Source of the DNA: an uncultured bacterium
GTDB lineage: Bacteria; Patescibacteriota; Minisyncoccia; Phycocordibacterales; GWA1-40-21
Assembly: GCA_963716205.1 (NCBI GenBank)
Contig: OY970290.1
Location: 452,911-516,910, forward strand
DNA length: 64,000 nt
Direction of reading: 5' to 3'
Shown here: in pieces, positions 28,189-64,000 of the stretch
Position numbering within the stretch: the stretch's first letter is position 1
Layout: each line of letters begins with the position of its first letter
The notes under the pieces: generated by a model
Told to the model about the DNA's origin: nothing
The model's database searches: none
The model's input: the letters and a program-made list of their open reading frames with translations, nothing else
Program-made: the position numbers and the translations under genes

Positions 28189-28248
28189 ATTTGGTTATTA
28201 GATAACAACTTTACTTTAGGTTCACTGATGTAGGATTTTTCTCTAGAA

Positions 28249-39373: not shown

Positions 39374-39613
39374 TTATTTCACTCCCAAAAGTTCTTTCAG
39401 CTTGTCCTCGTCAAAGCCCATGACAAGCTCGTCGCCGACATAAATGACCGGCACTCCCATCTGACCGCTCTTTTCTATCATTTCTTTTCTTTTTGCCAAA
39501 TCAGACTGCACATCGAATGTTTCATAAGGAATATCATGCTCCTTGAAAAATTCTTTCGCCATATTGCAGTAGTGGCATGTCGGCGTCGAATATATGATTA
39601 CTTTTTTACTCAT
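39374..39613 (-). CDS. glutaredoxin/NrdH-like thiol-disulfide oxidoreductase
   Basis: 79 aa. CHYC active site after the beta1 strand VIIYSTPT, and GVPVIYVGDELVMGFD. Confidence 0.8.
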   Translation of the reverse strand: MSKKVIIYSTPTCHYCNMAKEFFKEHDIPYETFDVQSDLAKRKEMIEKSGQMGVPVIYVGDELVMGFDEDKLKELLGVK

Positions 39614-39696
39614 GTTATTTTTATTAATCTGATAACATTCCCATTATAACATAGTGCGGTTTTTTTTAGTCTTGAAAAAATAAAGTTTCCTGTGTT

Positions 39697-40086
39697 TTAT
39701 TGAGATGAGGTAACTGTAGAAGATGCTGAATTGCTACTCACATCAAACGGTGCTATATCAACAACTTTGTTCATTATTGGATCATATAAAACAGCCTTCT
39801 CTGCATCAGAATAAAGCAATACATAATCTCCCGCTTTGGAATTAGCAAAAAATGGCTGGTCTTTCAGTTTTGTTGGATCAGTAATTTTAATTACCGAGGG
39901 AGTCTCCCCTTCCGGCAGAACAATCAGTTTGCCTATCATTTGTATGATGGAATCTGCTTGTTTTTGAGCAACTTCCTGTGGATTATTATTTATCTTGGAA
40001 AGTTCAATGTAAAAAATAATTGATGTACTCGCGGTAAAAATAAGCGCAATGATAAGCACGATATTTATTATTTTTGATTTCGTCAT
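39697..40086 (-). CDS. hypothetical membrane-anchored protein
   Basis: 129 aa. N-terminal TM and a Ser-rich C-terminus. Confidence 0.4.
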   Translation of the reverse strand: MTKSKIINIVLIIALIFTASTSIIFYIELSKINNNPQEVAQKQADSIIQMIGKLIVLPEGETPSVIKITDPTKLKDQPFFANSKAGDYVLLYSDAEKAVLYDPIMNKVVDIAPFDVSSNSASSTVTSSQ

Positions 40087-40160
40087 ATTGATTTATATTT
40101 TACTATTTCATTAAGCTGACTTTCGTTCTATTGTAGCATTCCTCATTCAAAAGTAAATAT

Positions 40161-43100
40161 TTATTGCCCTTCTGATGAGGTTGCCGAGGAATCAGTCGTT
40201 GTTGCTTGAGATGAATCATCCGGAGTCGTAGTTGCTGTTGTTATTTGGATATCAGAGGTGGAACTTGCGGTGCTTGTTGCCGTTCCATCAGAAGTCGAAG
40301 TGGCTGTCGAAACAATATCAGTTGTCGTTGCTTGAGATGAATCATCCGGAGTCGTAGTTGCTGTTTCGGAATCAGGCGTCGAAGTTGCAGTGCTTGTTGC
40401 GATTTCCGTTCCTGAATTATCCGGCGCACTCGAGCTTGCTGCCTCTGCCGGAGACGTCGCTGCTGGAAGTGTGTAGTCCGAAGGATAACCAAACGTTTTT
40501 GCATTATTGACTGCAAGAGCAATCCAACTGAAGGTTGTGTCATCAATAGCGGGTTTGTTAAGCATGATCGTAAATCCTGCCGTTGATTTTTTCATAATGA
40601 CATATTGAATATTGTTGTTGAAGATATCTCCGACGGTAGCGGTATCAGCGGCGGGATTGCTCGAAGTATCAAACGTAATGTTTGCACTTACGATTGGATC
40701 TGTAAGATACGGATTGGTGAATGTCACATCAACTGATTGCTGGCCCTTGGCAATAACCGCGAAGCCAGCGGTGTCATTATTGAAGTATGGCCTACCAAAG
40801 AATATTGTGTCTGATTCAAGAGTAATGGCGTCATTCAAAGAACTTATATTATCCACTGTCAAACCTTGCGTTGTTATGCTTGGTGCAATAATTTCAATTC
40901 CGGCGGCAAGGCGATCAACCAAAAGTTCAGATGTCGTATCCGTCGCTTCAGGACCGGTTCCTTGATTTGCCAGGAATTTCGCCAGCACCTGTCTTCCTAT
41001 TGTTTCAGTATTTCCAACATCTTCGATGCCGGCAAATTCACTCAAACTTTCTCCGCTGTAATATCCTTGTTCAACAAAAACCATCACTTGGCTCTGCCCC
41101 GAATTTGGACTCCAGTTGCCGAGTGCTTTGCCAATAACCTCACCCGCTTTTGTGGCTTTCATTGCTTTTCCGGGATCATCAGAAGTCGTCAAATAATCTC
41201 CTGGTTGTATCGGATCCGAACTTGATGAAACATTGACCATAATACGACCATTAAGTGCGATTGGCATTATTTTATCTTCCCCACTCATTGCATTATATCC
41301 AGCGGAAGTAAATTGACCATAGTTGTCGGAAACAACACCGATCACATTTGATGCATATGTCGTGGTAGCTTGAACAAGTTCGGTAATTTCCTGCGGTGAA
41401 TCTGTTGAAACATTTCCTTCCGCATCAGTTCCATATTGTTCAACAGTTGTTGTGCCAAGCACCATAACATCACCATAATCCGTCGACTGTTCAACTGGAT
41501 ACATTTCAGCATAATCAGAAGTTGGCGCACCGCTACAAGTGACAAGTTGATACGCAGTTCCTGATACCGGAGCTTGTGATCCCGTAAGAGTAGCTACGCA
41601 AACACCTTTGATTCTTGCGGCTGTTGACGTACCAAGTGAAACCGCGACTCCTACTGATGTAGTACCAACGCCACCAGCAATAATTGAAACTGTCGTTGTA
41701 CCGGAACTCGAATTTTTTACGCCAATATTAATCGCTGTAACACCGGTGCCACCATTTGCAGTCGTTCCAATATTGATCGTTTGGTTATTATTACCACTTG
41801 CACCAGTACCTATGTTAATAATTTGACCTCCGGTAGATGAGCCAAGTGTAATAGCACCTGTCCCTGTAGTGGAACCGATGACGATTGTGCCATTTGTATT
41901 TGGAGTCATCGTAATTCCACCTGTGCCAGTACCACCATAAATTGTAGTATTTCCTGTTAATGACGTACTGCCAATTTGTATAGCGCCGCTTGTAACATTG
42001 CTGAACAAAAGGTTTGTGGGAGACGTACCGCCATATATGGTTACTACTCCGGTTGCCGCTACTCCGCCAAGAGTCAATGTTCCTGTACCGGTTACAGCAA
42101 AAGTTGAAGCGCCATTACCCGCATTAATATTAACTTTGGTTGCACCCGTAATGTTACCGATGGTAACAGTTCCAGCTATTGCTCCTGTTCCAATATTGAT
42201 GATATTTCCGGTTGCACCTTGAGTACCAATATTTACAGTATTGATTCCTCCGATTCCAACTCCGAGGTTCAAAGTTTCCGCACCTGTCGATGAACCGACA
42301 GTGATAGCACCTGTCTGCCCAGTTCCGCCTATTGTATATGTACCTGATGTTAAAGCCGCGCCATCAGTTATCGAACCTGTTGTTATACCAGTACCTATCG
42401 TTATGGTTGAACCAGCGGCACCTTGTAATAAATAATTTCCTGTCCCCACTGTTTCTGTTATTCCTGTTGCACCGACATTATTTCCAATAGCAATGACATT
42501 ACCGCCAGTACTACCATTGGCAATATTTACTGCCGCATTATTAGAACCGGTATTTATATTTGCTGCAAAATTTGAAGAAACATTCAAATTGACTGCTGCA
42601 CCCGTAGAAGTCAAACCTGCAACAAAAGTTCCCAAATTATTCCACGTTTTAGCTCCATTCACCGATTGAGTTGTTGTAAGGTCAACAAAGTTTTGGGAAC
42701 TTGAACCTGTTCCGCCGTTGGTAATTGGCAAAATGCCCGCGGTAGAAGGCAAGTTGGTTAAGAGTGACCAACTTGGTGTTCCCGCAGCAGTGTTCATTAA
42801 AACCATACCTGTTGTGACACCGGCAGCCAATCTCGCGGGAGCAGGTGTTGAATTTTCATAAATCATATCTCCCACAGTAGTCATAGGATTTGTAAGTTTC
42901 CCATTAAACGTCGTCCAATCAGCGCTTGCCAGACATCCGCTTACAGATCCCGATGCCTGCGGACAGTTAATCGTGAGTGATGATGAAGTTGTTGAAATAT
43001 TAAATGATGTACCGGATGTTCCGACTGCTGTTGTGAATGGTCCCGTATATCCTGCTGCCACTGATGCTGTCAGTGTTCCTGAATTTGTCACCGGTGAATT

Positions 43101-46100
43101 CGTTACAGTATATCCTGTCGGTAGAGAAAGACCGACGGAGGTGACATACGCCAGTGATGTCGAGGCCGAGGATAACAAAAATTGAGAAGTTGATGTGGAA
43201 ATTACATTTCCATTTGGGTCAACTGCCAAAAATGCATTTGAAAGTTTTGAGATGTTCAAATTTTGAGTAGTGGAAGTCCCGATGACTGAAAGTGCAGTTA
43301 CCGGAGTTGTTGTGCCGATGCCGACATTGCCATTCGGTAATATATTGAATCCGACTGTAGAGGTAGAATTAAAAGAAACAAATGGAGACGTCAGTGAGCC
43401 ATTTAACGCAGTATAAGAAATACTTGATGTAGCCAATAAGAAATCAGCTGGATTTGAAGAAAATACATTTCGCATTGCGGAAACGCTTTGAGTTCGTAAA
43501 ACGGTAACGCTATCAAGCTGAGAGATAGGAGTTTGAATCGGAACGGGTGCAGTCCAGGAAGCAAAATTATTGTATGAATCGCTGTAGTGAATAAATGACG
43601 TATTGCCGTATTCATCAAGATAAATTCTCCAATCATTGGCGCTGACCTGTACAAGTGCCGGGGCTTCATAGTTATTCGCTCCCCATCCTGCCCAGTTGCC
43701 GCTTTCCGCAGTGACAAACGGTCCTGTCGGTGAAGAAGAAGTGGCATATTCAATATATTTCGGAGCGGTTTCCTCTTTGTACCAGAGATAATATGTGCTA
43801 CCAATCTTGACCATAAATGGGTCAATCTTGTTTGCTCCAATAACATAAACTGGATTCGACCATGTGGTCATGGCGGCATTTGTCGGGTGCATTTCGTAAA
43901 CACTGAAGGTATTATCGGAACCGTCCGGAGCAATTGAAACATAGGCATGAACAGTTCCGTCCGTATCGACAAAAAGTGACGGTGCCCATGTCCAATAGAC
44001 TGTGGTTGTCGCTGCCGTCGTGGAAGGATTTGTCACATAGCTCCAATTCCTCAGATCAGATGAAGAAGCAAGACCCCACCATTGATTTGAACCAAAGCCA
44101 GAATATGATGGAAAGTTATTATAACTCATCCAATAGACATTATTGTAATAAATAATTGACGGATCTCGGAAACTTCCGGATGGTGGGATATACGGCGGAT
44201 TGGGTTCAAAATCAAAGAAATTAATACCATCAGCACTTGATTCAATCTCCATAGTTTGTGCTGAGAAATTATGCCCGACAAGGATATATACTCCTTGACC
44301 CGCAACAGCAGGATTACCGACCGATGCATCACCCAGCGTGTTCGTGTTTCCACCAAAATATGCAATAGTTGTAGTAGCTGAAGTCAATCCCGCAACAGAA
44401 AATTCAGAGTTTGGAGTACTTGTCCCGACACCAACATTGCCATTGGTAAGAACTGTAAGGAGAGGCGATGTTGTTGAATAAATATTGAGTAGTGGTTGCG
44501 TTTGAGCATATGTTGAAGTCGCTTCAATAGCCAGTTCTGCAGACGGAGTTGTCGACCCGATTCCAATATAACCATTTGAAAAAACTTTAAAATATGAACT
44601 TCCATTTATTCCGTAAATTTCAAGAGGATTTCCTAAAGATGAACTTGCTTGAATATCAACGGCATCATCAGGCGTAGTTGTTCCGATTCCAACACTTCCA
44701 TTTGAAAGAATTATCATTCTTGTATCTGAAGCCAATGTTCCTCCGGTAAAGAATTTCAGAGCGGCTTGTGAATTTGTACTCGTAGCTGTGCCAATATCTA
44801 ATGAATTATCAGAAGCATACACATAAGCATCGTCTGATGTTGCTATGGTAAATGTCTGATCAGCGTTATATCCGTTATTAATACCCAAATCTACATAATT
44901 TGAATTATCATTTCCATTGTTTGCTGTTGCAATATAATCCGCAGAAGATGTCGGAGAGTTTGAAGAATTTTCCAATACCATTTCAACAGATGCGGACGAA
45001 CTGCCTATCACAGCAAACGGAACTACATTACCGTCTCCTAAAACATTCCAGTTTGTTGTCGTGCCAATGGCAATTGATGAACTTGCGGGAAATTCATATA
45101 GAACTGAATTAGTCAAAGTTCCGCTTGATGTTGCATACGAAATATATCCGGTCGTAAAAGGTGATGTTGTGCCAAGTCCCCCACTGCTTGTTCCGCCTGA
45201 TATTCCGAGCGATGATGTCGAAACATATGCAACACCTCCGATTGCTGTTGATGATGCTACGAGAACATATCCATTCGTTCCCGTTGCAATGCTACCAAGT
45301 CCCGATCCTGAAGACCAATATGCCAAATCTCCTGATGTTCCGGAAAGAGCATTTTGTTTCCCATTAAACGTCGTCCAATCAGCGCTTGCCAGACATCCGC
45401 TTACAGATCCCGATGCCTGCGGACAGTTAATCGTGAGTGATGATGAAGTTGTTGAAATATTAAATGATGTACCGGATGTTCCGACTGCTGTTGTGAATGG
45501 TCCCGTATATCCTGCTGCCACTGATGCTGTCAGTGTTCCTGAATTTTTCACCGGTGAATTCGTTACAGTATATCCTGTCGGTAGAGAAAGACCGACGGAG
45601 GTGACATACGCCAGTGATGTCGAGGCCGAGGATAACAAAAATTGAGAAGTTGATGTGGAAATTACATTTCCATTTGGGTCAACTGCCAAAAATGCATTTG
45701 AAAGATTGGAAATGTTTAATCCTTTCGTGGTTGAAGTACCGATGACGGAGAGTGCTGTTGCTGGAGTGGTGGTGCCAATACCAACTGCATATGATGCTAA
45801 TAATTCTCCTCCATAACCAGCGTTTCCGAGTGAGTATCCTATACCAATACCATTATTAAATGTGAAATTGCCCCAGCCATCTGAAGATATTGTTCCTTGT
45901 TGTGTATTGTCAGTTCTTGTTGAACTTATCAGTGTTGTTGAAGCATTCGCTGAAAAATTAAGAAGTCCGTTAGAATAAACTTGATTACCTGGAGCTCCAA
46001 TACCAACATTTCCATTGAAGAATGCGACTGTTCCAGTTGGTGCAGTAACAGAACCAACGGAAAGTGTGGAAACATTTGAAAGCGATTTATTATTGAGATT

Positions 46101-49100
46101 CACTCCGCCAGTCGCACCGGAATACGGAACATAGAGTGATGAGCTGGCAAACGGAATGTATGCAAGCGATGTCGAGGCCGAGAGCGGAAGGTAGGTGGAG
46201 GCGGCTGTTGCCGTCGTCAGGTAATTGGTGATGGTTGAGGTTGAGACGTAGTTGGCGGCGGCCGATGTCGTTGAGAGATATCCAAGCAGCGTGTTGGCAA
46301 ATGATGAAGTTGAGACGTAGTTGGTCAGTGATGAGGTGGTGGCCGTGATGTAATTGGAAGGATTGGAGTTGAGGTAATACAAACTTGAGGATGCAAACGG
46401 AATGTATGCAAGCGATGTCGAGGCCGAGAGCGGAAGGTAGGTGGAGGCGGCTGTTGCCGTCGTCAGGTAATTGGTGATGGTTGAGGTTGAGACGTAGTTG
46501 GCGGCGGCCGATGTCGTTGAGAGATATCCAAGCAGCGTGTTGGCAAATGATGAAGTTGAGACGTAGTTGGTCAGTGATGAGGTGGTGGCCGTGATGTAAT
46601 TGGAAGGATTGGAGTTGAGGTAATACAAACTTGAGGATGCAAACGGAATGTATGCAAGCGATGTCGAGGCCGAGAGCGGAAGGTAGGTGGAGGCGGCTGT
46701 TGCCGTCGTCAGGTAATTGGTGATGGTTGAGGTTGAGACGTAGTTGGCGGCGGCCGATGTCGTTGAGAGATATCCAAGCAGCGTGTTGGCAAATGATGAA
46801 GTTGAGACGTAGTTGGTCAGTGATGAGGTGGTGGCCGTGATGTAATTGGAAGGATTGGAGTTGAGGTAATACAAACTTGAGGATGCAAACGGAATGTATG
46901 CAAGCGATGTCGAGGCCGAGAGCGGAAGGTAGGTGGAGGCGGCTGTTGCCGTCGTCAGGTAATTGGTGATGGTTGAGGTTGAGACGTAGTTGGCGGCGGC
47001 CGATGTCGTTGAGAGATATCCAAGCAGCGTGTTGGCAAATGATGAAGTTGAGACGTAGTTGGTCAGTGATGAGGTGGTGGCCGTGATGTAATTGGAAGGA
47101 TTGGAGTTGAGGTAATACAAACTTGAGGATGCAAACGGAATGTATGCAAGCGATGTCGAGGCCGAGAGCGGAAGGTAGGTGGAGGCGGCTGTTGCCGTCG
47201 TCAGGTAATTGGTGATGGTTGAGGTTGAGACGTAGTTGGCGGCGGCCGATGTCGTTGAGAGATATCCAAGCAGCGTGTTGGCAAATGATGAAGTTGAGAC
47301 GTAGTTGGTCAGTGATGAGGTGGTGGCCGTGATGTAATTGGAAGGATTGGAGTTGAGGTAATACAAACTTGAGGATGCAAACGGAATGTATGCAAGCGAT
47401 GTCGAGGCCGAGAGCGGAAGGTAGGTGGAGGCGGCTGTTGCCGTCGTCAGGTAATTGGTGATGGTTGAGGTTGAGACGTAGTTGGCGGCGGCCGATGTCG
47501 TTGAGAGATATCCAAGCAGCGTGTTGGCAAATGATGAAGTTGAGACGTAGTTGGTCAGTGATGAGGTGGTGGCCGTGATGTAATTGGAAGGATTGGAGTT
47601 GAGGTAATACAAACTTGAGGATGCAAACGGAATGTATGCAAGCGATGTCGAGGCCGAGAGCGGAAGGTAGGTGGAGGCGGCTGTTGCCGTCGTCAGGTAA
47701 TTGGTGATGGTTGAGGTTGAGACGTAGTTGGCGGCGGCCGATGTCGTTGAGAGATATCCAAGCAGCGTGTTGGCAAATGATGAAGTTGAGACGTAGTTGG
47801 TCAGTGATGAGGTGGTGGCCGTGATGTAATTGGAAGGATTGGAGTTGAGGTAATACAAACTTGAGGATGCAAACGGAATGTATGCAAGCGATGTCGAGGC
47901 CGAGAGCGGAAGGTAGGTGGAGGCGGCTGTTGCCGTCGTCAGGTAATTGGTGATGGTTGAGGTTGAGACGTAGTTGGCGGCGGCCGATGTCGTTGAGAGA
48001 TATCCAAGCAGCGTGTTGGCAAATGATGAAGTTGAGACGTAGTTGGTCAGTGATGAGGTGGTGGCCGTGATGTAATTGGAAGGATTGGAGTTGAGGTAAT
48101 ACAAACTTGAGGATGCAAACGGAATGTATGCAAGCGATGTCGAGGCCGAGAGCGGAAGGTAGGTGGAGGCGGCTGTTGCCGTCGTCAGGTAATTGGTGAT
48201 GGTTGAGGTTGAGACGTAGTTGGCGGCGGCCGATGTCGTTGAGAGATATCCAAGCAGCGTGTTGGCAAATGATGAAGTTGAGACGTAGTTGGTCAGTGAT
48301 GAGGTGGTGGCCGTGATGTAATTGGAAGGATTGGAGTTGAGGTAATACAAACTTGAGGATGCAAACGGAATGTATGCAAGCGATGTCGAGGCCGAGAGCG
48401 GAAGGTAGGTGGAGGCGGCTGTTGCCGTCGTCAGGTAATTGGTGATGGTTGAGGTTGAGACGTAGTTGGCGGCGGCCGATGTCGTTGAGAGATATCCAAG
48501 CAGCGTGTTGGCAAATGATGAAGTTGAGACGTAGTTGGTCAGTGATGAGGTGGTGGCCGTGATGTAATTGGAAGGATTGGAGTTGAGGTAATACAAACTT
48601 GAGGATGCAAACGGAATGTATGCAAGCGATGTCGAGGCCGAGAGCGGAAGGTAGGTGGAGGCGGCTGTTGCCGTCGTCAGGTAATTGGTGATGGTTGAGG
48701 TTGAGACGTAGTTGGCGGCGGCCGATGTCGTTGAGAGATATCCAAGCAGCGTGTTGGCAAATGATGAAGTTGAGACGTAGTTGGTCAGTGATGAGGTGGT
48801 GGCCGTGATGTAATTGGAAGGATTGGAGTTGAGGTAATACAAACTTGAGGATGCAAACGGAATGTATGCAAGCGATGTCGAGGCCGAGAGCGGAAGGTAG
48901 GTGGAGGCGGCTGTTGCCGTCGTCAGGTAATTGGTGATGGTTGAGGTTGAGACGTAGTTGGCGGCGGCCGATGTCGTTGAGAGATATCCAAGCAGCGTGT
49001 TGGCAAATGATGAAGTTGAGACGTAGTTGGTCAGTGATGAGGTGGTGGCCGTGATGTAATTGGAAGGATTGGAGTTGAGGTAATACAAACTTGAGGATGC

Positions 49101-50498
49101 AAACGGAATGTATGCAAGCGATGTCGAGGCCGAGAGCGGAAGGTAGGTGGAGGCGGCTGTTGCCGTCGTCAGGTAATTGGTGATGGTTGAGGTTGAGACG
49201 TAGTTGGCGGCGGCCGATGTCGTTGAGAGATATCCAAGCAGCGTGTTGGCAAATGATGAAGTTGAGACGTAGTTGGTCAGTGATGAGGTGGTGGCCGTGA
49301 TGTAATTGGAAGGATTGGAGTTGAGGTAATACAAACTTGAGGATGCAAACGGAATGTATGCAAGCGATGTCGAGGCCGAGAGCGGAAGGTAGGTGGAGGC
49401 GGCTGTTGCCGTCGTCAGGTAATTGGTGATGGTTGAGGTTGAGACGTAGTTGGCGGCGGCCGATGTCGTTGAGAGATATCCAAGCAGCGTGTTGGCAAAT
49501 GATGAAGTTGAGACGTAGTTGGTCAGTGATGAGGTGGTGGCCGTGATGTAATTGGAAGGATTGGAGTTGAGGTAATACAAACTTGAGGATGCAAACGGAA
49601 TGTATGCAAGCGATGTCGAGGCCGAGAGCGGAAGGTAGGTGGAGGCGGCTGTTGCCGTCGTCAGGTAATTGGTGATGGTTGAGGTTGAGACGTAGTTGGC
49701 GGCGGCCGATGTCGTTGAGAGATATCCAAGCAGCGTGTTGGCAAATGATGAAGTTGAGACGTAGTTGGTCAGTGATGAGGTGGTGGCCGTGATGTAATTG
49801 GAAGGATTGGAGTTGAGGTAATACAAACTTGAGGATGCAAACGGAATGTATGCAAGCGATGTCGAGGCCGAGAGCGGAAGGTAGGTATTCAAAAGATTCT
49901 GCAAATCTGTTTGATTAGAAAGTGTTCCAGTAATTGCACCCCATGCAACAGTTGCACTTGAACTTGAAGCAAACGCCCAATCATAACCTGTAGGCGACGT
50001 CGATGATGCTTCCAAAAATTGTCCGGGGGTACCAGTTGCTATCGATGCAAGTGATCCTGTGTTCGTCCAATATGAAAGTCTTCCACTCGTTCCCCCACCA
50101 ATAAGAAATTGGGATGATGATGCAACAGGAATGTATGCAAGCGAAGTGGAAGCCGAGAGTGGTAGATATATTGCCGCCGCAGAAGTTGTAGAAAGGATAC
50201 TATTGATAAAATTATCGGAAATTTTCAAACCGGAAGATGATTTTGACAATGTTGAACCATCGAGAATCAGAGAAAAAGTTGAACTGGATAAATTGAGACC
50301 TTCACCATCGGTAGTATAAGGAACAACATCGCAATTCAAATCTGTTGGCAAACAATTTGGATTTAAGGTAGCTCCTGGAGCATAAAGATCGGCAAAAGTA
50401 GTATTCGAACAAAACAAACCCGACAAGAGAAAAAAGACAAATAAATTTATTTTTATAATAAAAAGAATATTCTTTTTTTTAGCAATAGCAACTCTCAT
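40161..50498 (-). CDS. giant secreted/surface repeat protein (3445 aa) with 80-aa tandem repeats, tail-fiber-like repeats, GH43-like beta-propeller and acidic Ser/Thr-rich C-terminal tail
   Basis: Signal peptide or TM at the N-terminus. About 16 identical 80-aa repeats (LPLSASTSLAYIPFASSSLYYLNSNPSNY...). Recurrent NGNVGIGTTTP-type motifs. A central domain (DPSIIYYNNVYWMSY...GSTYYLWYKEE) is typical of five-bladed beta-propeller glycoside hydrolases and lectins. Gly/Thr-rich beta-helix-like region. C-terminal ATSTATSTPD... tail. Confidence 0.75.
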   Translation of the reverse strand: MRVAIAKKKNILFIIKINLFVFFLLSGLFCSNTTFADLYAPGATLNPNCLPTDLNCDVVPYTTDGEGLNLSSSTFSLILDGSTLSKSSSGLKISDNFINSILSTTSAAAIYLPLSASTSLAYIPVASSSQFLIGGGTSGRLSYWTNTGSLASIATGTPGQFLEASSTSPTGYDWAFASSSSATVAWGAITGTLSNQTDLQNLLNTYLPLSASTSLAYIPFASSSLYYLNSNPSNYITATTSSLTNYVSTSSFANTLLGYLSTTSAAANYVSTSTITNYLTTATAASTYLPLSASTSLAYIPFASSSLYYLNSNPSNYITATTSSLTNYVSTSSFANTLLGYLSTTSAAANYVSTSTITNYLTTATAASTYLPLSASTSLAYIPFASSSLYYLNSNPSNYITATTSSLTNYVSTSSFANTLLGYLSTTSAAANYVSTSTITNYLTTATAASTYLPLSASTSLAYIPFASSSLYYLNSNPSNYITATTSSLTNYVSTSSFANTLLGYLSTTSAAANYVSTSTITNYLTTATAASTYLPLSASTSLAYIPFASSSLYYLNSNPSNYITATTSSLTNYVSTSSFANTLLGYLSTTSAAANYVSTSTITNYLTTATAASTYLPLSASTSLAYIPFASSSLYYLNSNPSNYITATTSSLTNYVSTSSFANTLLGYLSTTSAAANYVSTSTITNYLTTATAASTYLPLSASTSLAYIPFASSSLYYLNSNPSNYITATTSSLTNYVSTSSFANTLLGYLSTTSAAANYVSTSTITNYLTTATAASTYLPLSASTSLAYIPFASSSLYYLNSNPSNYITATTSSLTNYVSTSSFANTLLGYLSTTSAAANYVSTSTITNYLTTATAASTYLPLSASTSLAYIPFASSSLYYLNSNPSNYITATTSSLTNYVSTSSFANTLLGYLSTTSAAANYVSTSTITNYLTTATAASTYLPLSASTSLAYIPFASSSLYYLNSNPSNYITATTSSLTNYVSTSSFANTLLGYLSTTSAAANYVSTSTITNYLTTATAASTYLPLSASTSLAYIPFASSSLYYLNSNPSNYITATTSSLTNYVSTSSFANTLLGYLSTTSAAANYVSTSTITNYLTTATAASTYLPLSASTSLAYIPFASSSLYYLNSNPSNYITATTSSLTNYVSTSSFANTLLGYLSTTSAAANYVSTSTITNYLTTATAASTYLPLSASTSLAYIPFASSSLYYLNSNPSNYITATTSSLTNYVSTSSFANTLLGYLSTTSAAANYVSTSTITNYLTTATAASTYLPLSASTSLAYIPFASSSLYYLNSNPSNYITATTSSLTNYVSTSSFANTLLGYLSTTSAAANYVSTSTITNYLTTATAASTYLPLSASTSLAYIPFASSSLYYLNSNPSNYITATTSSLTNYVSTSSFANTLLGYLSTTSAAANYVSTSTITNYLTTATAASTYLPLSASTSLAYIPFASSSLYVPYSGATGGVNLNNKSLSNVSTLSVGSVTAPTGTVAFFNGNVGIGAPGNQVYSNGLLNFSANASTTLISSTRTDNTQQGTISSDGWGNFTFNNGIGIGYSLGNAGYGGELLASYAVGIGTTTPATALSVIGTSTTKGLNISNLSNAFLAVDPNGNVISTSTSQFLLSSASTSLAYVTSVGLSLPTGYTVTNSPVKNSGTLTASVAAGYTGPFTTAVGTSGTSFNISTTSSSLTINCPQASGSVSGCLASADWTTFNGKQNALSGTSGDLAYWSSGSGLGSIATGTNGYVLVASSTAIGGVAYVSTSSLGISGGTSSGGLGTTSPFTTGYISYATSSGTLTNSVLYEFPASSSIAIGTTTNWNVLGDGNVVPFAVIGSSSASVEMVLENSSNSPTSSADYIATANNGNDNSNYVDLGINNGYNADQTFTIATSDDAYVYASDNSLDIGTATSTNSQAALKFFTGGTLASDTRMIILSNGSVGIGTTTPDDAVDIQASSSLGNPLEIYGINGSSYFKVFSNGYIGIGSTTPSAELAIEATSTYAQTQPLLNIYSTTSPLLTVLTNGNVGVGTSTPNSEFSVAGLTSATTTIAYFGGNTNTLGDASVGNPAVAGQGVYILVGHNFSAQTMEIESSADGINFFDFEPNPPYIPPSGSFRDPSIIYYNNVYWMSYNNFPSYSGFGSNQWWGLASSSDLRNWSYVTNPSTTAATTTVYWTWAPSLFVDTDGTVHAYVSIAPDGSDNTFSVYEMHPTNAAMTTWSNPVYVIGANKIDPFMVKIGSTYYLWYKEETAPKYIEYATSSSPTGPFVTAESGNWAGWGANNYEAPALVQVSANDWRIYLDEYGNTSFIHYSDSYNNFASWTAPVPIQTPISQLDSVTVLRTQSVSAMRNVFSSNPADFLLATSSISYTALNGSLTSPFVSFNSTSTVGFNILPNGNVGIGTTTPVTALSVIGTSTTQNLNISKLSNAFLAVDPNGNVISTSTSQFLLSSASTSLAYVTSVGLSLPTGYTVTNSPVTNSGTLTASVAAGYTGPFTTAVGTSGTSFNISTTSSSLTINCPQASGSVSGCLASADWTTFNGKLTNPMTTVGDMIYENSTPAPARLAAGVTTGMVLMNTAAGTPSWSLLTNLPSTAGILPITNGGTGSSSQNFVDLTTTQSVNGAKTWNNLGTFVAGLTSTGAAVNLNVSSNFAANINTGSNNAAVNIANGSTGGNVIAIGNNVGATGITETVGTGNYLLQGAAGSTITIGTGITTGSITDGAALTSGTYTIGGTGQTGAITVGSSTGAETLNLGVGIGGINTVNIGTQGATGNIINIGTGAIAGTVTIGNITGATKVNINAGNGASTFAVTGTGTLTLGGVAATGVVTIYGGTSPTNLLFSNVTSGAIQIGSTSLTGNTTIYGGTGTGGITMTPNTNGTIVIGSTTGTGAITLGSSTGGQIINIGTGASGNNNQTINIGTTANGGTGVTAINIGVKNSSSGTTTVSIIAGGVGTTSVGVAVSLGTSTAARIKGVCVATLTGSQAPVSGTAYQLVTCSGAPTSDYAEMYPVEQSTDYGDVMVLGTTTVEQYGTDAEGNVSTDSPQEITELVQATTTYASNVIGVVSDNYGQFTSAGYNAMSGEDKIMPIALNGRIMVNVSSSSDPIQPGDYLTTSDDPGKAMKATKAGEVIGKALGNWSPNSGQSQVMVFVEQGYYSGESLSEFAGIEDVGNTETIGRQVLAKFLANQGTGPEATDTTSELLVDRLAAGIEIIAPSITTQGLTVDNISSLNDAITLESDTIFFGRPYFNNDTAGFAVIAKGQQSVDVTFTNPYLTDPIVSANITFDTSSNPAADTATVGDIFNNNIQYVIMKKSTAGFTIMLNKPAIDDTTFSWIALAVNNAKTFGYPSDYTLPAATSPAEAASSSAPDNSGTEIATSTATSTPDSETATTTPDDSSQATTTDIVSTATSTSDGTATSTASSTSDIQITTATTTPDDSSQATTTDSSATSSEGQ
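42901..43245 (-). repeat. intragenic near-identical duplication, copy A (about 345 bp)
   Basis: Identical to 45361..45705 except for one mismatch (GTC vs TTC at 43087/45547). Flanking sequence is homologous but diverged. Confidence 0.8.
45361..45705 (-). repeat. intragenic near-identical duplication, copy B
   Basis: See copy A. The two copies encode the duplicated protein segment ...INCPQASGSVSGCLASADWTTFNGK..., flanking the beta-propeller domain. Confidence 0.8.
46120..49888 (-). repeat. tandem array of about 16 copies of a 240-bp unit with essentially perfect nucleotide identity (in-frame, 80 aa each)
   Basis: The unit beginning CAAACGGAATGTATGCAAGCGATGTCGAGGCCGAGAGCGGAAGGTAGGTGGAGG recurs at an exact 240-nt period (for example 46149, 46389, 46629...). 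By eye the copies are identical and only the first and last are diverged. Confidence 0.85.
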
Positions 50499-50660
50499 TT
50501 CTTTGAAAGAAAATGCTCCATTTGCTATCTATTATATATCTATAATGGCTATTGCACAATGAATATAACTAAAAATGAAAATAAAAATGGAGAAAGACCG
50601 ATTGCTAAAAATAATCATAATTAAAGGCTTATTTTTATCTTTATACACTTTAAGATTAGA

Positions 50661-51914
50661 TCATTTTTTAAATCCTTTAAACTCTTTTTCGACATCATGT
50701 TCTATCACCTGCAAATACGTTTCGAGCTTGTTAAGAAGTTCTGTTTCTTGATCAGTAAGTTCACGCTCATTCTTTGTTTTTTGTAAAAAATCAATACGAT
50801 CATTTATTTCTTTTCGTATATAATCAAAATCCTTGTATAAAGTGGATTCAGCCTCAAAAACCTTTTTTGATATCTTTTTCTCCAGACGGGAAAAGCGGTA
50901 CAGGAGGTACCAGATGAGGATAAGAATGAGGAGAACAATGAGGATAAATGTACTGTTGTAAGTGAAATAAGTAAGTAGGAGTGTTTCGATCCTTGCAAAA
51001 CCTTGCTCTGTCACTGTGAGGAAAAGAGGCGAAGTCAAAGGACTTTTCATTCCAAAGCTTTCTACTTCTCCATAAAGTTTGTATGTTCCGTATGTGAGCT
51101 TCTCCGGCCAGACCATCGAGAAGGTGCCTGATGGATTCACCGTGACTTTCTCAGTTGACGTCGCTCCGTTTTCATTGACCAGGAAAAGATCTGCGGTAAA
51201 TGTTGTTGTAGAAGTTGTACTTGAAGCGATAAGTGAGGAGGTCGCCAGTGCTCCATCCACCTCAAAGGTGTTACCTTCCGTTACCTGTGCCGGAAAGAGG
51301 GTGATATGCAAAGATGGGAATAGCATTTCCTCGGCTATTGTTGAAGTACTCGTAATAATGATTGAAACTCCACTCGGGATGACCGGAACGTATGTTTGTT
51401 TGACCTCAAGCAGATTGAATGATGCCGGCGTACTGCCTGTAAATACATTCGTTCCGTATCCATCATTGGCGCGGACAACTGCCGAAGAGAAAATGACTGA
51501 TGCGATGCCGGCTTTTTTAACTTGAAAAACAATGCTCAGAATTTTGCCCGCAGTGCCGGTAAAGCCGGGGGTTGGCACTCCGCCGTCAAACGATACGGTG
51601 CCGGCACTATTGGAAAAGGAAGGATCCTCAACCCAGAGAGAAAATATAGAATCCGATTTGCTGACTGACATGACTTCCAAGAGATTACTGGGAAAACTAA
51701 CAGTGACTTCGGCATCGTTAATTGCCGTTGATTGAGAATCAACGAGAACATTAAGGGTAAATATGTTTCCTGTGGTGAAATATCCTGAAGAAGGATTGAA
51801 AGACAGGGTTGCTGCATGAATCTGATCTACAATAAAAAAATTAAGCAGAATGAGAACGCCGAAAAATATATACTTGCAGATAGCCTTTTTTTTATTTACA
51901 TATTCCATGTTCAA
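50661..51914 (-). CDS. membrane-anchored cohesin-like domain protein (signal peptide, cohesin-like module, Ig-like region, TM, cytoplasmic coiled-coil tail)
   Basis: N-terminal module ATLSFNPSSG...NVLVDSQ...AEVTVSFPSNLLEVMSV...FSLWVEDPSFSNSAGTVSFDGGVPTPGFTGTAGKI... is shared by five proteins in the locus and resembles cohesin type I topology. C-terminal TM plus a Lys/Glu-rich tail. Confidence 0.55.
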   Translation of the reverse strand: MNMEYVNKKKAICKYIFFGVLILLNFFIVDQIHAATLSFNPSSGYFTTGNIFTLNVLVDSQSTAINDAEVTVSFPSNLLEVMSVSKSDSIFSLWVEDPSFSNSAGTVSFDGGVPTPGFTGTAGKILSIVFQVKKAGIASVIFSSAVVRANDGYGTNVFTGSTPASFNLLEVKQTYVPVIPSGVSIIITSTSTIAEEMLFPSLHITLFPAQVTEGNTFEVDGALATSSLIASSTTSTTTFTADLFLVNENGATSTEKVTVNPSGTFSMVWPEKLTYGTYKLYGEVESFGMKSPLTSPLFLTVTEQGFARIETLLLTYFTYNSTFILIVLLILILIWYLLYRFSRLEKKISKKVFEAESTLYKDFDYIRKEINDRIDFLQKTKNERELTDQETELLNKLETYLQVIEHDVEKEFKGFKK

Positions 51915-52525
51915 TTGATTTTTTGCTTTTTTCTTAATCTGATGGCTATTATAATAAGAACAGTGCTGATAAACAATAATATAACTATGCCGGCAATAAC
52001 TAAAAATCTATTGATTGGTTTTTTTATAACGGATATGGATGTTGGTTCAAGCCACGGATTGACGCGTGTTCCCAAGCCATCGTTGAGAAAAACAGAAGAA
52101 GTGTCCAGAAAATCAATTTTTGTTGTGCCAGATTTTTTTGCAATAAAATAAATTCTGAATACTTCCCCATTTTGGCCGAGAAAACCTCCCGGTATGCCGC
52201 CGACAAAAGTTATCTGCCCGGTATTATTATGAAAAAGTGGCGCAACCGGCCAGAGTGTGAAGATTGATGTAGCGGTGTTAATGCTTTGAACTTGAAGTGC
52301 ATTTTTATCAAATACGACTGTTCCATCAATCGTATTCATTGATGTATCCGTGGAAGAAATTTTCAAATCAACAACAAAAGTACTTCCATTATATACTTGT
52401 TGGCTACCTGAACTCAAAGTGAGTGTTGCAGCTGCCCGAGCAGAGGAAGGTATGAATAAAAATTGAGTTGCAATCAATGTGATAGCGGTAATGAAAAATA
52501 TTTTTTTGTTGAAATTGAAAATCAT
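51911..52525 (-). CDS. membrane-anchored cohesin-like domain protein (short)
   Basis: 204 aa. Signal peptide, the same cohesin-like module (AATLTLSSG...VVDLKISS...FTLWPVAPLFHNNTGQITFVGGIPGGFLGQNGEV...) and a C-terminal TM anchor. Confidence 0.55.
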   Translation of the reverse strand: MIFNFNKKIFFITAITLIATQFLFIPSSARAAATLTLSSGSQQVYNGSTFVVDLKISSTDTSMNTIDGTVVFDKNALQVQSINTATSIFTLWPVAPLFHNNTGQITFVGGIPGGFLGQNGEVFRIYFIAKKSGTTKIDFLDTSSVFLNDGLGTRVNPWLEPTSISVIKKPINRFLVIAGIVILLFISTVLIIIAIRLRKKQKIN

Positions 52526-52537
52526 ATTGAAGTTATA

Positions 52538-53620
52538 TTATTGTGCGAGAACTGGATTATATCCGGGCGTCGTATGACCCCACTGCGAAAGCATGATAGA
52601 AAAAGAAATTGAATCAACTTCCCCATCTTTGACTATAGCGCTTATGTAAGGATTTTTATACGGCGGTTTCTCATGCCAATAATACAATAAAATGGAAAAA
52701 TCAACCGTATCAACAATGTGATCGTGATTCAGATCAGCACTATCATATACGGGGGAAGAGCTTATTGGCGATAAAAAACTGCCTCCTCCGCCTCCGCCAC
52801 CGCTCACGCTTCCTCCGCCGCCATTATTACTGCCTGATGCAGCTTGGGCAGTGAATGATTGCGTTGCAACAGATCTTCCTGTTCCATAATATGCAACGAG
52901 TTTGAAATAATAATTTCCTGGATTTGGAACGGTTGCAGTCAAAATGTCATTAAAACTCTGCCCCGGTGTCAGGAATTTTGCCGCGGTGGAATCAAAAATA
53001 TTTCCCGGATCGCCACATGACTGCGTTGGATCCGTCACCACGCACCATTCATATTGATATTCCGTGCCGACTGATCCTTCGTTGGTAATATTTATATTTG
53101 CAGTAATTGCCGGCACGACAAGATTCCCCATCGACTGAATTAAAACTTGCGGCGGAGATGGTCGAAGTGCACACTGAAGCCAATCTGTTTGCACATTACA
53201 ATTATCGCAGGAAAAATTAATTCTCCCCGCATTTGTTCCAGGAGTTCCCGCGATTCCTGTAAATGTTCCGCTTGCATTGATTATTGCGCCCGAAAAATTA
53301 ATCCACCCGAGATGCGATGACCACGCATATCCGCCGAGCTGTCCAAGACAATTATTCGTCACGCCGGTACTGCTTGCCGGAGAAAGATTGATCCAGCCAT
53401 ACGGACCGCTCCATGCATAGCCAGTGAGCGCAGTGTCAGTAACCTGCACATTACATCCTTGACAGCCAAAATTTATCCAGCCTAAATTTTCTCCCCATGC
53501 ATAGGTAGTATTTGAATTAATCGTGCCATCGGTTTCAGATGCAAAAGTGAATGACGAAAAAGAAAAAATAAAAAGTATAATTATCAAAGCAAGAAAAAAT
53601 TTCGTTTTATTTTTTATCAT
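52538..53620 (-). CDS. secreted repeat protein with C-terminal dockerin domain
   Basis: Signal peptide. Repeats YAWGENLGWINFG, YAWSGPYGWINLS and YAWSSHLGWINFSG. Gly-rich linker. Two dockerin-type Ca-binding segments (DLNHDHIVDTVDFSILLYYW and AIVKDGEVDSISFSIMLSQW). Confidence 0.65.
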   Translation of the reverse strand: MIKNKTKFFLALIIILFIFSFSSFTFASETDGTINSNTTYAWGENLGWINFGCQGCNVQVTDTALTGYAWSGPYGWINLSPASSTGVTNNCLGQLGGYAWSSHLGWINFSGAIINASGTFTGIAGTPGTNAGRINFSCDNCNVQTDWLQCALRPSPPQVLIQSMGNLVVPAITANINITNEGSVGTEYQYEWCVVTDPTQSCGDPGNIFDSTAAKFLTPGQSFNDILTATVPNPGNYYFKLVAYYGTGRSVATQSFTAQAASGSNNGGGGSVSGGGGGGGSFLSPISSSPVYDSADLNHDHIVDTVDFSILLYYWHEKPPYKNPYISAIVKDGEVDSISFSIMLSQWGHTTPGYNPVLAQ

Positions 53621-53707
53621 GAAAAATATGTAAAAATTAACTCGAATAGCAACTCTCGTTCAGCAATAACTCTTGCTTATTATATATCATAAAAACAATA
53701 ATGAATA

Positions 53708-53781
53708 TGGTGCGGGTGGCGAGAATCGAACTCGCGCCCGATGCTTGGGAAGCACCAGTTCTGCCACTAAACTACGCCCGC
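53708..53781 (-). tRNA. tRNA-Gly (anticodon CCC), CCA encoded
   Basis: The reverse complement has anticodon stem-loop GGTGC-TTCCCAA-GCATC, T-arm GCGAG-TTCGATT-CTCGC and 3' ACCA. One possible acceptor-stem mismatch in my reading. Confidence 0.7.
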
Positions 53782-57962: not shown

Positions 57963-59420
57963 TCATTGATTGTCTATTTTTATAATCGGCAAAAGTTTGT
58001 CTTCTTCGATTTTGGCTGCTGTATTTTCATGTATTTCTTCTTTAACAGGAATTTCTGTCTGACTCATGTTTATTGCTTCAAGATTTTTCAGATACTGATC
58101 CTTAATTTCTTTTTGCTTTGCTTGTAAGCTTTCTTCGCTTGCCAGTTCCTCCAGAGCCTCGATTTTTTCCACTTCCTGCTCCTCCGTTTTTTTGCGCATT
58201 TCCTCATTTTTTGCATCTTTGAAAATTCTTTTTAGGCGTGCAATGATTTTGTGCCCGAAAAGATAGTGTCCGATTAAAAGGAGGAGGAGGAGAATGATAA
58301 TCCAATTTTGTTTGAGAAAATTAATCCATGTTACCGGCGGGGCGACGGTGATCGTTTCATCTCTGACATTTCCCGCACGATCAAAAGCACGCACGGTCAC
58401 CCGCAGAGTATCAAGCGGTTTGAGAGCAAGTGCATACGGACTGTCTGATTGGACAAAAACCGGAGAACTGTTGGGAGATTTGCTGATATCGACAACGCCA
58501 ACTTCATAATGATCGATTCCGGAAAGATCATCTGTGGTAAAAAAAGAAACGAGTGCCTGCGTATTGTTTGATGCCGTCACTATTGCGACCTGTGGAGTGA
58601 ACGCTGCCGGAGGTGCAGTATCGATGCGTATGACAAAATTCGTTGTCCCTCCCCAGATGCCGTCTTTTTGTGCCTTGATATGAAAATACCAAATTCCGTC
58701 GGTCAGGTTTGGATATGAAATGACCGTATCTGTCGCATCAATGACATTATCCGGAACGGTGAACGGCTTGTCATCGAGCGTAAAACTAAAACCGCTCACC
58801 CCATCGTCTCTGTTCCATGCCAGAACAGGAGAATTATTGTTATACCAGGTATCTTGAAACGGATGGGTTTCGGAAAAAACCTGCGGACCTTCCGGCGCTT
58901 GCGGCAAAATTGTATAGGTTCCGCGCCCGACTTCAAGCTCCACTGCTGTTCCCTGCCCGTCGTTCGCCAAAATACGCGATGCATCTGAAATGGTAACATT
59001 CGCTTGTCCGGTTGTGAGCGCGCGGAATGTCATCGTCGTAATCAAACCGCTTTCGGTCGTGATGCCGTTTGGAATAACACCGGAAAGTTCCAGGGTTCCA
59101 TTGGTATTTGAATACGTCGGCGGATCAACCCAGATGCCGATAATGGAATTGCTGTCTGACGGATTGACGAGAGCAAGCTTTGTCGGATCAAAATTCACTG
59201 AAAGAGAAACTGTATTGATGCTTTGTCCTTCAGTATTTACAAAAACGGGTATTTCAATTGTTGAGCCACTGATAATCGTGGCGGTTGCAGGCGAAAGAAA
59301 AAGATCCGCTTTTTGAAGCAGTTCGCCCGCATTCACATTTACATAGGATGACTGCTGGGCAAAAGCAAAACACGGGATGAGAAATAAAAGAAAAAATATT
59401 TTTTTATATAATTTAAGCAT
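57963..59420 (-). CDS. membrane-anchored cohesin-like domain protein with Ig-like domains and cytoplasmic coiled-coil tail
   Basis: Signal peptide, cohesin-like module (...VSLSVNFDPTKLALVNPSDSNSIIGIWVDPPTYSNTNGTLELSGVIPNGITTESG...), two beta-rich domains, a TM and a Glu/Lys-rich tail. Confidence 0.55.
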   Translation of the reverse strand: MLKLYKKIFFLLFLIPCFAFAQQSSYVNVNAGELLQKADLFLSPATATIISGSTIEIPVFVNTEGQSINTVSLSVNFDPTKLALVNPSDSNSIIGIWVDPPTYSNTNGTLELSGVIPNGITTESGLITTMTFRALTTGQANVTISDASRILANDGQGTAVELEVGRGTYTILPQAPEGPQVFSETHPFQDTWYNNNSPVLAWNRDDGVSGFSFTLDDKPFTVPDNVIDATDTVISYPNLTDGIWYFHIKAQKDGIWGGTTNFVIRIDTAPPAAFTPQVAIVTASNNTQALVSFFTTDDLSGIDHYEVGVVDISKSPNSSPVFVQSDSPYALALKPLDTLRVTVRAFDRAGNVRDETITVAPPVTWINFLKQNWIIILLLLLLIGHYLFGHKIIARLKRIFKDAKNEEMRKKTEEQEVEKIEALEELASEESLQAKQKEIKDQYLKNLEAINMSQTEIPVKEEIHENTAAKIEEDKLLPIIKIDNQ

Positions 59421-60902: not shown

Positions 60903-60903
60903 T

Positions 60904-63900: not shown

Positions 63901-64000
63901 AAATTCAATTCCTTTTGCATTACCGCCCTCTATTGAAACGGCATTGTCTGTTCCATTGTAACCGAACAATGCTCTGCCACCGCCCATTTCAAGACCCGCT
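60904..64000 (-). CDS. giant surface protein, C-terminal part (N-terminus beyond window): FN3-like repeats, Peptidase_S74 intramolecular chaperone domain, acidic Ser/Thr-rich tail
   Basis: Duplicated FN3-like modules (GTYWFKVSASDGIG.TTPSAEVT). NGNVGIGTSNP-type motifs. IMC/S74 signature SDERLKTNI...LDEVLALNPVTYNW...VGFIAQQV. C-terminal ...VATSTATSTPDII...STGQ tail shared with the 3445-aa protein. Confidence 0.7.
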   Translation of the reverse strand, partial: AGLEMGGGRALFGYNGTDNAVSIEGGNAKGIEFLVGGTSGTFPDGGTDAMTILGSGNIGYVGIGTSTPTSLLTVWGNLSVGTSTSPLLLVNSATGILTINSPLGSEGLTLETNGSARVSLSATTGSVLGSLSFGASQSIGWGASANFGNADVGLARYTAGVLQVTGNALNNFSTLIAGNLDVPISTPAIPTIASSTIGGTLSAGTYWFKVSASDGIGSTTPSAEVTATTTGTTGSITLTIAAVTGAASYNIYFSTTTAGNELAYFSTTTTTFVFATTSGATNLPSGVPTVTNAYADKIASSSNSWFDGGDVGIGTSNPIDILNIAGTNNNGITLSGTNPTISMNSSNYLRIGNGLWYYYGNAGNTWQLYDSKGGAQRFVVAADTGNVLIPTGTLTVGSTTAQSALGFVYIQATSSSNTAPLLTVATSTGATYLTVLANGNVGIGTSNPQNALTLTSGDTFVTSMATPATPAIASSTTGGNLTSGTYWFKVSASDGIGTTTPSAEVTTTTTGTTGSITLTIAAVTGAASYNIYFSTTTAGNELAYFSTTTTTFVFATTSGATNGTVPTVTNAYINKISASGTSWLDGGAVAINENPTNIPAGFGLTIGGGPTGVNPTIYFGNSSNWQRYATFEMYNSNFAMYNTQTSVYQFLDTPTGLMGLNTSTPTSILYVQASSTTNTSPLFTVASSSSAVFTVLASGNTGIGTTSPAYALTVAASSTGQIQMIDTAGAAGDYWYIGDAASNTFDVFDQGNAGVYMTNGGTSWTSASDERLKTNITTLGTSTLDEVLALNPVTYNWIATSSSQAEQVGFIAQQVAAAGLTDVVVMPSNPNDCVPGDVNQSDCYGLDYDRFAPYLVKAIQVQQGFIGTIETFINNLANGIAHLADIFVEQLTVGTQAAPSSSGITMYDHATGQPYCVFINNGVWTNSAGACGTATSTSDITDTASVGSAGGDSSSESSASSSDATMTDDTFATSTASTTDETVATSTATSTPDIIATSTPEIIPDDSASSTDTTDTSGDLSTSTDASSTGQ
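62311..62560 (-). repeat. intragenic near-identical duplication (copy 1, about 250 bp, FN3-like module)
   Basis: Near-identical to 63151..63400 (for example GTGGCAAAAACAAATGTCGTGGTTGTAGTGGAAAAATATGCCAATTCATTTCCTGCAG...), with a few mismatches. Confidence 0.75.
63151..63400 (-). repeat. intragenic near-identical duplication (copy 2)
   Basis: See copy 1. Confidence 0.75.

Follow-up and report, generated by a model that had tools for sequence, protein, structure and literature searches.

The serine-rich repeat glycoproteins of Gram-positive cocci (Fap1, GspB and SraP) use a very long, Ser/Thr-rich and likely glycosylated stalk to project a binding region, and they are characterized by short SAS[AEV]-type repeats, accessory SecA2/Y2 export and an LPXTG anchor. 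A domain of the phage phi29 protein gp12 drives trimer assembly and then cuts itself off. Cultured Patescibacteria (the Candidate Phyla Radiation, CPR) live attached to other cells and, to our knowledge, the molecules that make this contact are largely unknown. Variable-length stalks have been described in the Periscope Proteins, among them SasG, Rib, Sgo_0707/SHIRT, CdrA and CshA, which are defined by tandem protein repeats that exceed 50 aa and are at least 80% identical, and in which recombination within the gene has been proposed to change copy number and hence the projection of the functional domain, with the largest variation where repeat identity is highest (Whelan et al. 2021, PMC8201768). 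Here we analysed a 64,000-nt stretch of DNA (the window; positions 452,911 to 516,910 of contig OY970290.1, assembly GCA_963716205.1) from an uncultured bacterium of the Patescibacteriota, in which one giant gene contains a perfect, in-frame tandem array of an 82-aa repeat. The finding is real and represents a new form of presumably variable-length surface stalk in a barely characterised organism and protein family. We think it fairly probable that the array is the cell-proximal shaft of a secreted Patescibacteria fibre resembling phage tail fibres, and that it expanded recently and can change length in the manner of the Periscope Proteins. The locus is a concrete candidate for cell contact, a chromosomal fibre made of phage tail-fibre parts with predicted sugar-cutting and lectin-like modules.

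Comparison with described systems

The giant fibre behaves like the Periscope Proteins but is not a clean member of the group. Its repeats are 82 aa long and occur in 15 full copies of 100% identical DNA, and a surface location is suggested by a signal-like N-terminal segment and by neighbouring genes that encode secreted or anchored proteins. An indirect hint that repeat number may differ between strains comes from the related genes compared, with 15.2 copies here, ~1.7 in a paralog and 5.9 in an ortholog's array, and from the related species L012, which does not have the gene. Repeats of Periscope Proteins are mostly globular (Ig-like domains, beta-grasp folds or three-helix bundles), whereas the repeat described here is an uncharged, Ser/Thr/Tyr-rich block of sub-repeats; they carry an N-terminal ligand-binding head and a C-terminal wall anchor, whereas in the giant protein the array lies beside the N-terminus, the functional modules are found C-terminal to it and an LPXTG motif is lacking; and strain variation is known for them, whereas the host here is an uncultured, Patescibacteria-type organism in which no second strain with the gene was found. 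In its behaviour the stalk resembles the Periscope stalks of pathogens, and it is built of a different, undescribed repeat.

Phage tailspikes and fibres are the second point of comparison, represented by phi29 gp12 (Peptidase_G2; PDB 3gqh and 6qz9) and by the endosialidase-type Peptidase_S74 proteins. The giant protein shares with them an enzymatic module and, towards its C-terminus, an auto-chaperone fold that begins with an S|D-aromatic-A-E motif, and one phage virion fibre contains the repeat module as well. Unlike the phage fibres, it is encoded by a chromosomal gene that has no phage genes around it, its N-terminus is signal-like and it is 3-10x longer than typical tail fibres, and a lectin-like domain and a Ser/Thr tail follow its chaperone. 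The serine-rich repeat glycoproteins resemble it in their very long, Ser/Thr-rich repetitive stalk, but its unit is 82 aa long with Tyr-aliphatic positions, it has no LPXTG and no accessory Sec genes were seen near the gene. Trimeric autotransporters of the YadA type have a similar modular fibre with a repetitive stalk, and some homologs of the giant protein carry YadA-head repeats and are labelled 'autotransporter adhesin', but the giant protein has a gp12-type chaperone fold followed by a lectin-like domain in place of a C-terminal beta-barrel translocator. Identity with either of these two classes was rejected, the first on the absence of LPXTG and SAS[AEV] repeats and the second on the absence of the translocator.

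Geometry and reliability of the array

The giant fibre gene is a single open frame on the minus strand (positions 40161 to 50498; 10,338 nt, 3445 aa). Within it, Tandem Repeats Finder located a perfect array at positions 46147 to 49886 (minus strand) with a period of 246 nt, 15.2 copies, 100% matches and 0 indels, and a direct lag scan gave 0 mismatches over 3740 nt at lag 246 against 2303 mismatches at lag 240. The first-pass annotation, which was made by eye, had placed the array correctly and had described its copies as free of differences, and the computed pairwise identity of 100% bears this out. Its repeat size of 240 bp and 80 aa was wrong, since both methods give 246 nt and 82 aa, and the peptide that it quoted is itself 82 residues long. 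Its count of about 16 copies becomes 15 full units, all one identical string of 246 nt (82 aa), plus a stub: 16 unit starts are found in the protein, from aa 207 to aa 1437, with the 16th copy ending after ~20 aa, and the array spans aa 207-1456 in frame with the host gene. Chance cannot have produced 3.7 kb of perfect periodicity.

Repeat-bearing surface-protein genes are classic contingency loci, and this precedent is what speaks for the idea, raised at first, that the array acts as a phase- or antigenic-variation switch. However, the unit of 246 nt is 3 x 82 and a change in copy number therefore never breaks the frame, so that the gene cannot be turned off in this way, which rules out on/off phase variation. 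The peptide encoded is one and the same in all copies and offers no new epitope, which leaves antigenic variation unsupported. Neither an invertible promoter nor a homopolymer tract was seen, although no search was aimed at them, and a switch of either kind seems to us extremely improbable.

A second frame on the minus strand (positions 49914 to 46093) runs for 1274 codons without a stop across the array; no ATG, GTG or TTG occurs in it, and it is probably a by-product of base composition, the coding strand being C-rich. All three frames of the plus strand of the array are full of stops. A ribosome slipping into the second minus-strand frame would read on without meeting a stop.

The early warning that such arrays are prone to collapse or expansion during assembly was justified, since short-read contigs of relatives stop in this region and a second nearby gene, the paralog P0122, holds the identical unit. 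It is conceivable, if unlikely, that the gene is real but that its 15.2 copies, their perfect identity or both were made by the assembler, through a pile-up of unanchored reads or a misdivision of copies between the gene and P0122. The identical unit in two genes ~17 kb apart fits this explanation, as do the short-read and Logan contigs, all of which break in or near the giant gene, and the ortholog in a related genome (L001), which is broken by frameshifts. The metagenome-assembled genome (MAG) series of L001 was built with metaFlye and a single Medaka round from Nanopore reads whose median N50, 6.1 kb, is only modestly above the 3.7-kb array; if the window shares an origin of this type, only part of the reads would span the array. 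On the other hand, the 10.3-kb frame is intact and an independent assembly of run ERR11563597, which contains this strain, reproduces both gene flanks with at least 99.95% identity; its contigs break off 120 nt into the gene at the 5' end and 70 nt before the 3' end. The edges of the array are also biologically sensible, with the partial 16th copy running into a junction that is conserved in the paralog, the orthologs and a phage. The centre of the array lies ~1.9 kb from unique sequence, a distance at which many reads would be anchored, and the phenomenon recurs in another species, there with a period of another length.

The repeat unit

The unit contains no charged residues. Together, Ser, Thr, Ala, Leu, Tyr and Asn account for 81% of it, with Ser/Thr making up 41%. 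It is composed of eight sub-repeats of 8-13 residues (~10 aa), each closing with Tyr and Ile, Leu or Val, and within every unit the 16-nt sequence CCAACTACGTCTCAAC occurs twice as a direct repeat, at positions 113 and 182 of the unit. In an exhaustive HMMER search of 1.84 billion representative proteins the unit gave only 13 matches at E <= 0.001 and 5 at E <= 1e-10; a word-indexed search with two units against 5.8 billion proteins gave no match, though HMMER later found relatives. No Pfam, NCBIfam or PDB entry matches the unit, and a PDB sequence search with the unit and its junctions returned chance matches only. Structure prediction, proposed as a check in the first-pass annotation, was run with AlphaFold2 (AF2) on three units without an alignment and gave no usable model, the predicted local distance difference test score (pLDDT) being 35.

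These properties raise the question of whether the array is instead an extended, disordered and heavily O-glycosylated spacer of the mucin type, serving as a hydrophilic brush or a wall-spanning linker. Its high Ser/Thr content and zero charge, the lack of a confident fold from AF2 and of any PDB relative, and a glycosyltransferase gene in a phage that bears the module would all suit such a spacer. However, hydrophobic pairs of Tyr and Ile/Leu/Val recur about every 10 residues, and Leu, Phe and Pro positions are conserved. Entire 20-aa motifs keep their amino acids across species despite saturated synonymous change, whereas disordered linkers usually drift. The segment LPLSASTSLAYIPFASSSLY has the same amino acids in the window and in L001 while 11 of its 60 nt differ, all synonymously, and this pattern indicates that the unit peptide is under purifying selection. 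The module also belongs to a virion structural protein, described below. Taken together, a mucin-type spacer is possible but is a less probable explanation than a structured shaft element.

Codon usage sets the unit apart from its host gene. The G+C fraction at third codon positions (GC3) is 0.63 and the C fraction there (C3) is 0.45, compared with 0.30 and 0.15 in the rest of the gene, and among 715 windows of 82 codons taken from other genes there is none with a C3 as high as that of the unit. The perfect array of the L001 ortholog is not GC3-rich, and neither is the part of P0122 that lies in the window. A GC3-rich donor was sought among six related sequences (L001-L006) and none was found, the maximum nucleotide identity being 81% and all of them having a lower GC.

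Paralogs and relatives

P0122 is a paralogous fibre gene of 2452 aa located ~10 kb upstream of the giant gene, on the same strand and on the same 681,747-bp contig, to whose recorded proteins LepA and GyrA of the window are exact matches. Its 3' part (aa 1422-2452) occupies positions 60904 to 64000 on the minus strand and runs off the right end of the window, as confirmed with tblastn (100% over 1031 aa, 63999 to 60907). It gave the best match to the unit, and has a different N-terminal type and a Peptidase_S74 C-terminus. In its 5' part, beyond the window, the identical 82-aa unit is present ~1.7x, as one full unit with a 59-aa version before it and a stub after it, and the 59-aa version is short of exactly the 23 aa that lie between the two 16-nt internal direct repeats. 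A tract of 101 aa is identical between P0122 and the giant protein. P0001, a third paralog encoded on this contig, has the N-terminal type and the propeller-like module of the giant protein but no array.

A scan of species-representative genomes found two relatives. L001, a 733-kb contig from a Nanopore MAG, contains an ortholog with the same sub-motifs and different unit boundaries, and this ortholog has three separate arrays, of which one of 318 nt x 5.9 is perfect (100%), one of 285 nt x 2.1 reaches 99% and one of 249 nt x 2.9 reaches 96% (L001 positions 9764-12209 and 14793-15499). It is split into three open reading frames by apparent frameshifts, as expected from Nanopore consensus errors. 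L002, a short-read MAG, carries numerous diverged copies on a contig that breaks off within a 216-nt array, and in two metagenome contigs (L003 and L004) the sequence stops where a second copy starts. Short-read metagenomes systematically break or truncate genes of this kind, and the protein class is therefore under-counted.

The same comparisons bear on whether the array is simply a recent slippage accident, neutral or slightly harmful, that is, a functionless and transient state of a low-complexity segment prone to recombination. The lack of any difference between copies indicates that the expansion is very young, and the great rarity of the unit and the mere ~1.7 copies in the paralog would likewise be expected of an accident. 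Against this, another species has perfect arrays of the module that are independent of this one, several relatives have arrays at which assemblies break, and the frame has stayed open over 1250 added residues. The codon usage of the unit, which is unlike the rest of the gene, is also unexpected for simple copying of local sequence. We consider an accident of this kind distinctly unlikely.

A more distant family was observed in a 9110-bp contig, listed both as metagenomic (L006) and as viral (L010), and in the protein P0125, in which runs of the repeat 'ITNGLATTNYVN' are punctuated by 'YYLNSNPSNF/YI/V'. This suggests that YLNSNPxNYI may be a widespread fibre motif beyond the present family.

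Occurrence of the module in phages

Three nearly identical IMG/VR contigs (L007, L008 and L009) carry the module. L008 is a genuine phage with genes for a portal, a major head protein, a maturation protease, a tape measure protein and a head-tail adaptor, and a glycosyltransferase gene accompanies the module in the phage. Its virion fibre (L008 positions 6474-9803; 1109 aa) has a signal-like N-terminus, a WGNITGTLSNQTDL motif and runs of LSASTSLAYIPxASSSLYYLNSNPxxYI, and it shares with the giant protein the exit junction SSTLYVPYTGATTNVNLNNQSLSNV. Because it is part of the virion fibre of a genuine phage, the module can be regarded as a structural fibre element. The L008 fibre gene has 88-93% nucleotide identity to cellular genes of L001 and L002 over 212-380 nt, in a phage contig of only 33% GC, which suggests a recent exchange of the module between phages and cells. 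The presence of the repeat in a paralog, an ortholog and a phage makes host-phage module exchange and rapid evolution of fibre length testable with existing long-read data.

Modules of the giant protein

The gene had been described early on as coding for a giant surface-type protein, and its content agrees with a secreted, fibre-type protein, with an N-terminal hydrophobic signal-like segment, modules of phage tail fibres and tailspikes and an auto-chaperone fold of the phi29 gp12 type. All of its homologs are large Patescibacteria/Parcubacteria proteins (their source names are Parcubacteria, Paceibacterota or Patescibacteria), many of them with Peptidase_S74, Gly_rich_2, GH32N or YadA-head domains. 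Pfam searches with the whole protein and eight segments gave only a spurious low-complexity match to SID and a sub-threshold match to GH32N, and NCBIfam searches with the protein segments gave no match.

The signal-like segment covers aa 1-36 (MRVAIAKKKNILFIIKINLFVFFLLSGLFCSNTTFA|DL; positions 50391 to 50498, minus strand, as are all features of this gene) and consists of a basic n-region followed by a hydrophobic stretch; among 19-aa stretches of the protein, it is strongly hydrophobic and otherwise only one at aa 2937 is. In the N-terminal region that follows (49881 to 50390), self-comparison revealed the conserved motif YAPGATLNPxC, a degenerate version of the unit junction (aa 102-130, positions 50109-50195, 69% nucleotide identity to the unit) and a WGAITGTLSNQTDL motif, which matches the phage tail protein family phrog_25379 and recurs in P0001, L002 and the phage L008.

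The array is followed by modules with repeated 'NGNVGIGTTTP' motifs. Two near-identical segments of 430 nt and 143 aa, the first at aa 1572-1715 (45356 to 45785) and the second at aa 2392-2535 (42896 to 43325), form a dispersed duplication with 94.7% identity. Of its 23 differences, 22 fall within the first 80 nt and one in the last 350 nt, and the latter tract looks like a recent gene-conversion tract.

Between them, at aa ~2110-2340 (43479 to 44171), lies a module resembling the five-bladed propellers of GH32/GH43. It matches the phage tail protein family phrog_18920 (E 8.7e-25), levanase (7.7e-6) and, weakly, beta-fructofuranosidase entries of the PDB (E 3e-4), and its Pfam GH32N score of 16.6 bits lies below the cut-off of 22.1, with P0001 scoring above it at 29.2 bits. 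FRDPS, WAPSLF and YEAP motifs can be read in the sequence. A Gly/Thr-rich, internally repetitive region (aa ~2600-2960; 41619 to 42701) has many self-matches and aligns to the G-rich repeats of P0002.

The phi29 gp12-type intramolecular auto-chaperone fold was assigned to aa ~2994-3159 (41022 to 41519), within a C-terminal module common to 50 of 120 homologs. A profile of 22 aligned C-terminal modules matches the phi29 pre-neck appendage protein gp12 (PDB 6qz9/3gqh) in its C-terminal auto-chaperone fold, and this alignment begins exactly at the DFAEYFE boundary, at the D where chain 3gqh starts. The protein of the window carries the boundary motif of the cleavage site, S|D-[FY]-A-E-[YM], as TS|DYAEMYP, at which the fold begins. 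Pfam Peptidase_G2 (PF11962) is not matched by the window sequence itself and is matched by 3 of the 22 aligned homologs (best E 2e-6). Paralogs and orthologs carry Peptidase_S74 in place of the gp12-type domain. By analogy with gp12, the giant protein is probably a trimeric fibre.

A beta-sandwich fold like that of H-type lectins follows at aa ~3239-3329 (40512 to 40784); Pfam H_lectin is not matched by the window sequence and is matched by 4 of the 22 homologs at E ~0.005. The protein closes with a Ser/Thr/Asp-rich tail (40164 to 40466) that has a short duplication of its own (TTTPDDSSQATTTD...) and ...SSEGQ as its last residues. A similar ending, ...S(T/S)GQ, is found in the paralogs P0001 and P0122 and in the homolog P0003.

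A proposed length-changing shaft

The array is best placed as a proximal shaft in view of the order of the modules, with the export signal at the N-terminus and the enzymatic and lectin-like modules towards the C-terminus. Recent expansion of a stalk or shaft segment, as the first-pass annotation had proposed, is the best reading of the array, and the length variability that it also proposed receives indirect support from the identical unit being present 15.2x here and ~1.7x in the paralog, and from the 318 nt x 5.9 array of the ortholog. Active recombination in these genes is seen in the 430-nt dispersed duplicate, in the 23-aa deletion variant of P0122 and in the identical unit of two paralogs.

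In the ancestral state, which probably resembled P0122 or L002, two 'LPLSASTSLAYIPFASS' motifs would have stood at a distance of 246 nt. The block between 'LPLSASTSLAYIPFASS' copies could then be multiplied by unequal recombination or replication slippage, and each gain or loss would amount to 82 residues, keeping the frame and altering length alone. The N-terminus would bear an export or anchor signal, and the propeller, the Gly-rich region, the auto-chaperone and the lectin-like domain would be distal (C-terminal), so that copy number would set the projection of the distal modules from the cell. At ~1.5 A per residue, the 1250 residues of the array would add ~190 nm, a value to be taken as an order of magnitude only. 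We infer the trimeric state, the rigidity of the shaft, the end attached to the cell, copy-number variation in the population and its effect on function.

Several points weigh against a rigid, length-changing proximal shaft. The copy number and the perfect identity rest on a single, probably long-read assembly, in which the assembler could have split copies wrongly between the giant gene and P0122, the identical unit being in both. More than ~3 near-identical copies were found in 0 of 120 homologs, a comparison that is uninformative given that most of these come from short reads. The pLDDT of 35 and the absence of any solved structure resembling the unit give no support to a folded or rigid shaft, and the window sequence stays below the Pfam thresholds for Peptidase_G2, H_lectin and GH32N. 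The giant protein has no LPXTG motif and no C-terminal membrane segment that would mark an anchoring end. Finally, self-cleavage of the gp12 type, if real, would free the lectin-like domain and the tail, which misfits a simple picture of a binding tip.

A broader scheme can be built on the shaft reading, and we regard it as speculative and rather improbable. It holds that Patescibacteria use phage-derived, self-chaperoned tail fibres with a glycosidase and a lectin-like tip as surface organelles for attachment or attack, with a reach tuned in 82-residue steps through rapid in-frame gain and loss of a hitherto undescribed Ser/Thr/Tyr shaft module, which is homogenised between paralogs by gene conversion and traded with the phages that infect them. 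If this were true, the length and identity of the fibre would be part of a three-way contest between a tiny bacterium, its host cell and its phages.

Genomic setting

The neighbours of the fibre genes in the window are ordinary chromosomal genes (LepA, LeuRS, TsaD, PrsW, GyrA, MurJ, RNase P RNA and eight tRNAs), and the organism is taken to be a CPR bacterium with a small genome. Comparison with the collinear contig of L012, from a related species with 70-85% nucleotide identity, showed that a 14.1-kb stretch (positions 39607 to 53710) is absent there. It contains the giant gene, a gene of 129 aa and, upstream of the giant gene, three genes whose products are secreted or membrane-anchored, and one of its edges abuts a tRNA-Gly (53708-53781). 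L012 also does not have P0122 at the corresponding position. No flanking or att-like direct repeat of at least 11 nt was found at the edges, and no integrase or phage genes were found within the stretch. A prophage or integrated element was rejected on the absence of phage families nearby, of an integrase and of edge repeats, and the stretch is best described as lineage-specific rather than as a mobile element.

The three proteins encoded upstream of the giant gene (positions 50661-53620, minus strand) all have signal-like N-termini, and those of 204 aa and 417 aa also have C-terminal membrane segments. The 204-aa protein has a Pfam cohesin domain, to which the 417-aa protein is similar by eye only, and the 360-aa protein has repeated 'GWINF' motifs and a C-terminal DLNHDHIVDTVDFSILL that is dockerin-like by eye. 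The three could form an anchoring set of the cohesin-dockerin type for surface proteins. Between the two fibre genes, the minus strand also encodes a 485-aa protein with a cohesin domain (57963-59420) and a 516-aa protein with Big_6 and fn3 domains (59436-60986), the latter conserved beside the fibre gene of L001.

Elsewhere in the window, a segment of low GC (0.33-0.35) at positions 26444-29160, beside tRNA-Ser and tRNA-Glu, contains genes for an AAA_15/AAA_21 (AbiEii-like) ATPase and a HEPN/DUF4145 protein and looks like a small defence island. A bacterial RNase P RNA of class A was identified at positions 4709-5060 on the minus strand (122 bits).

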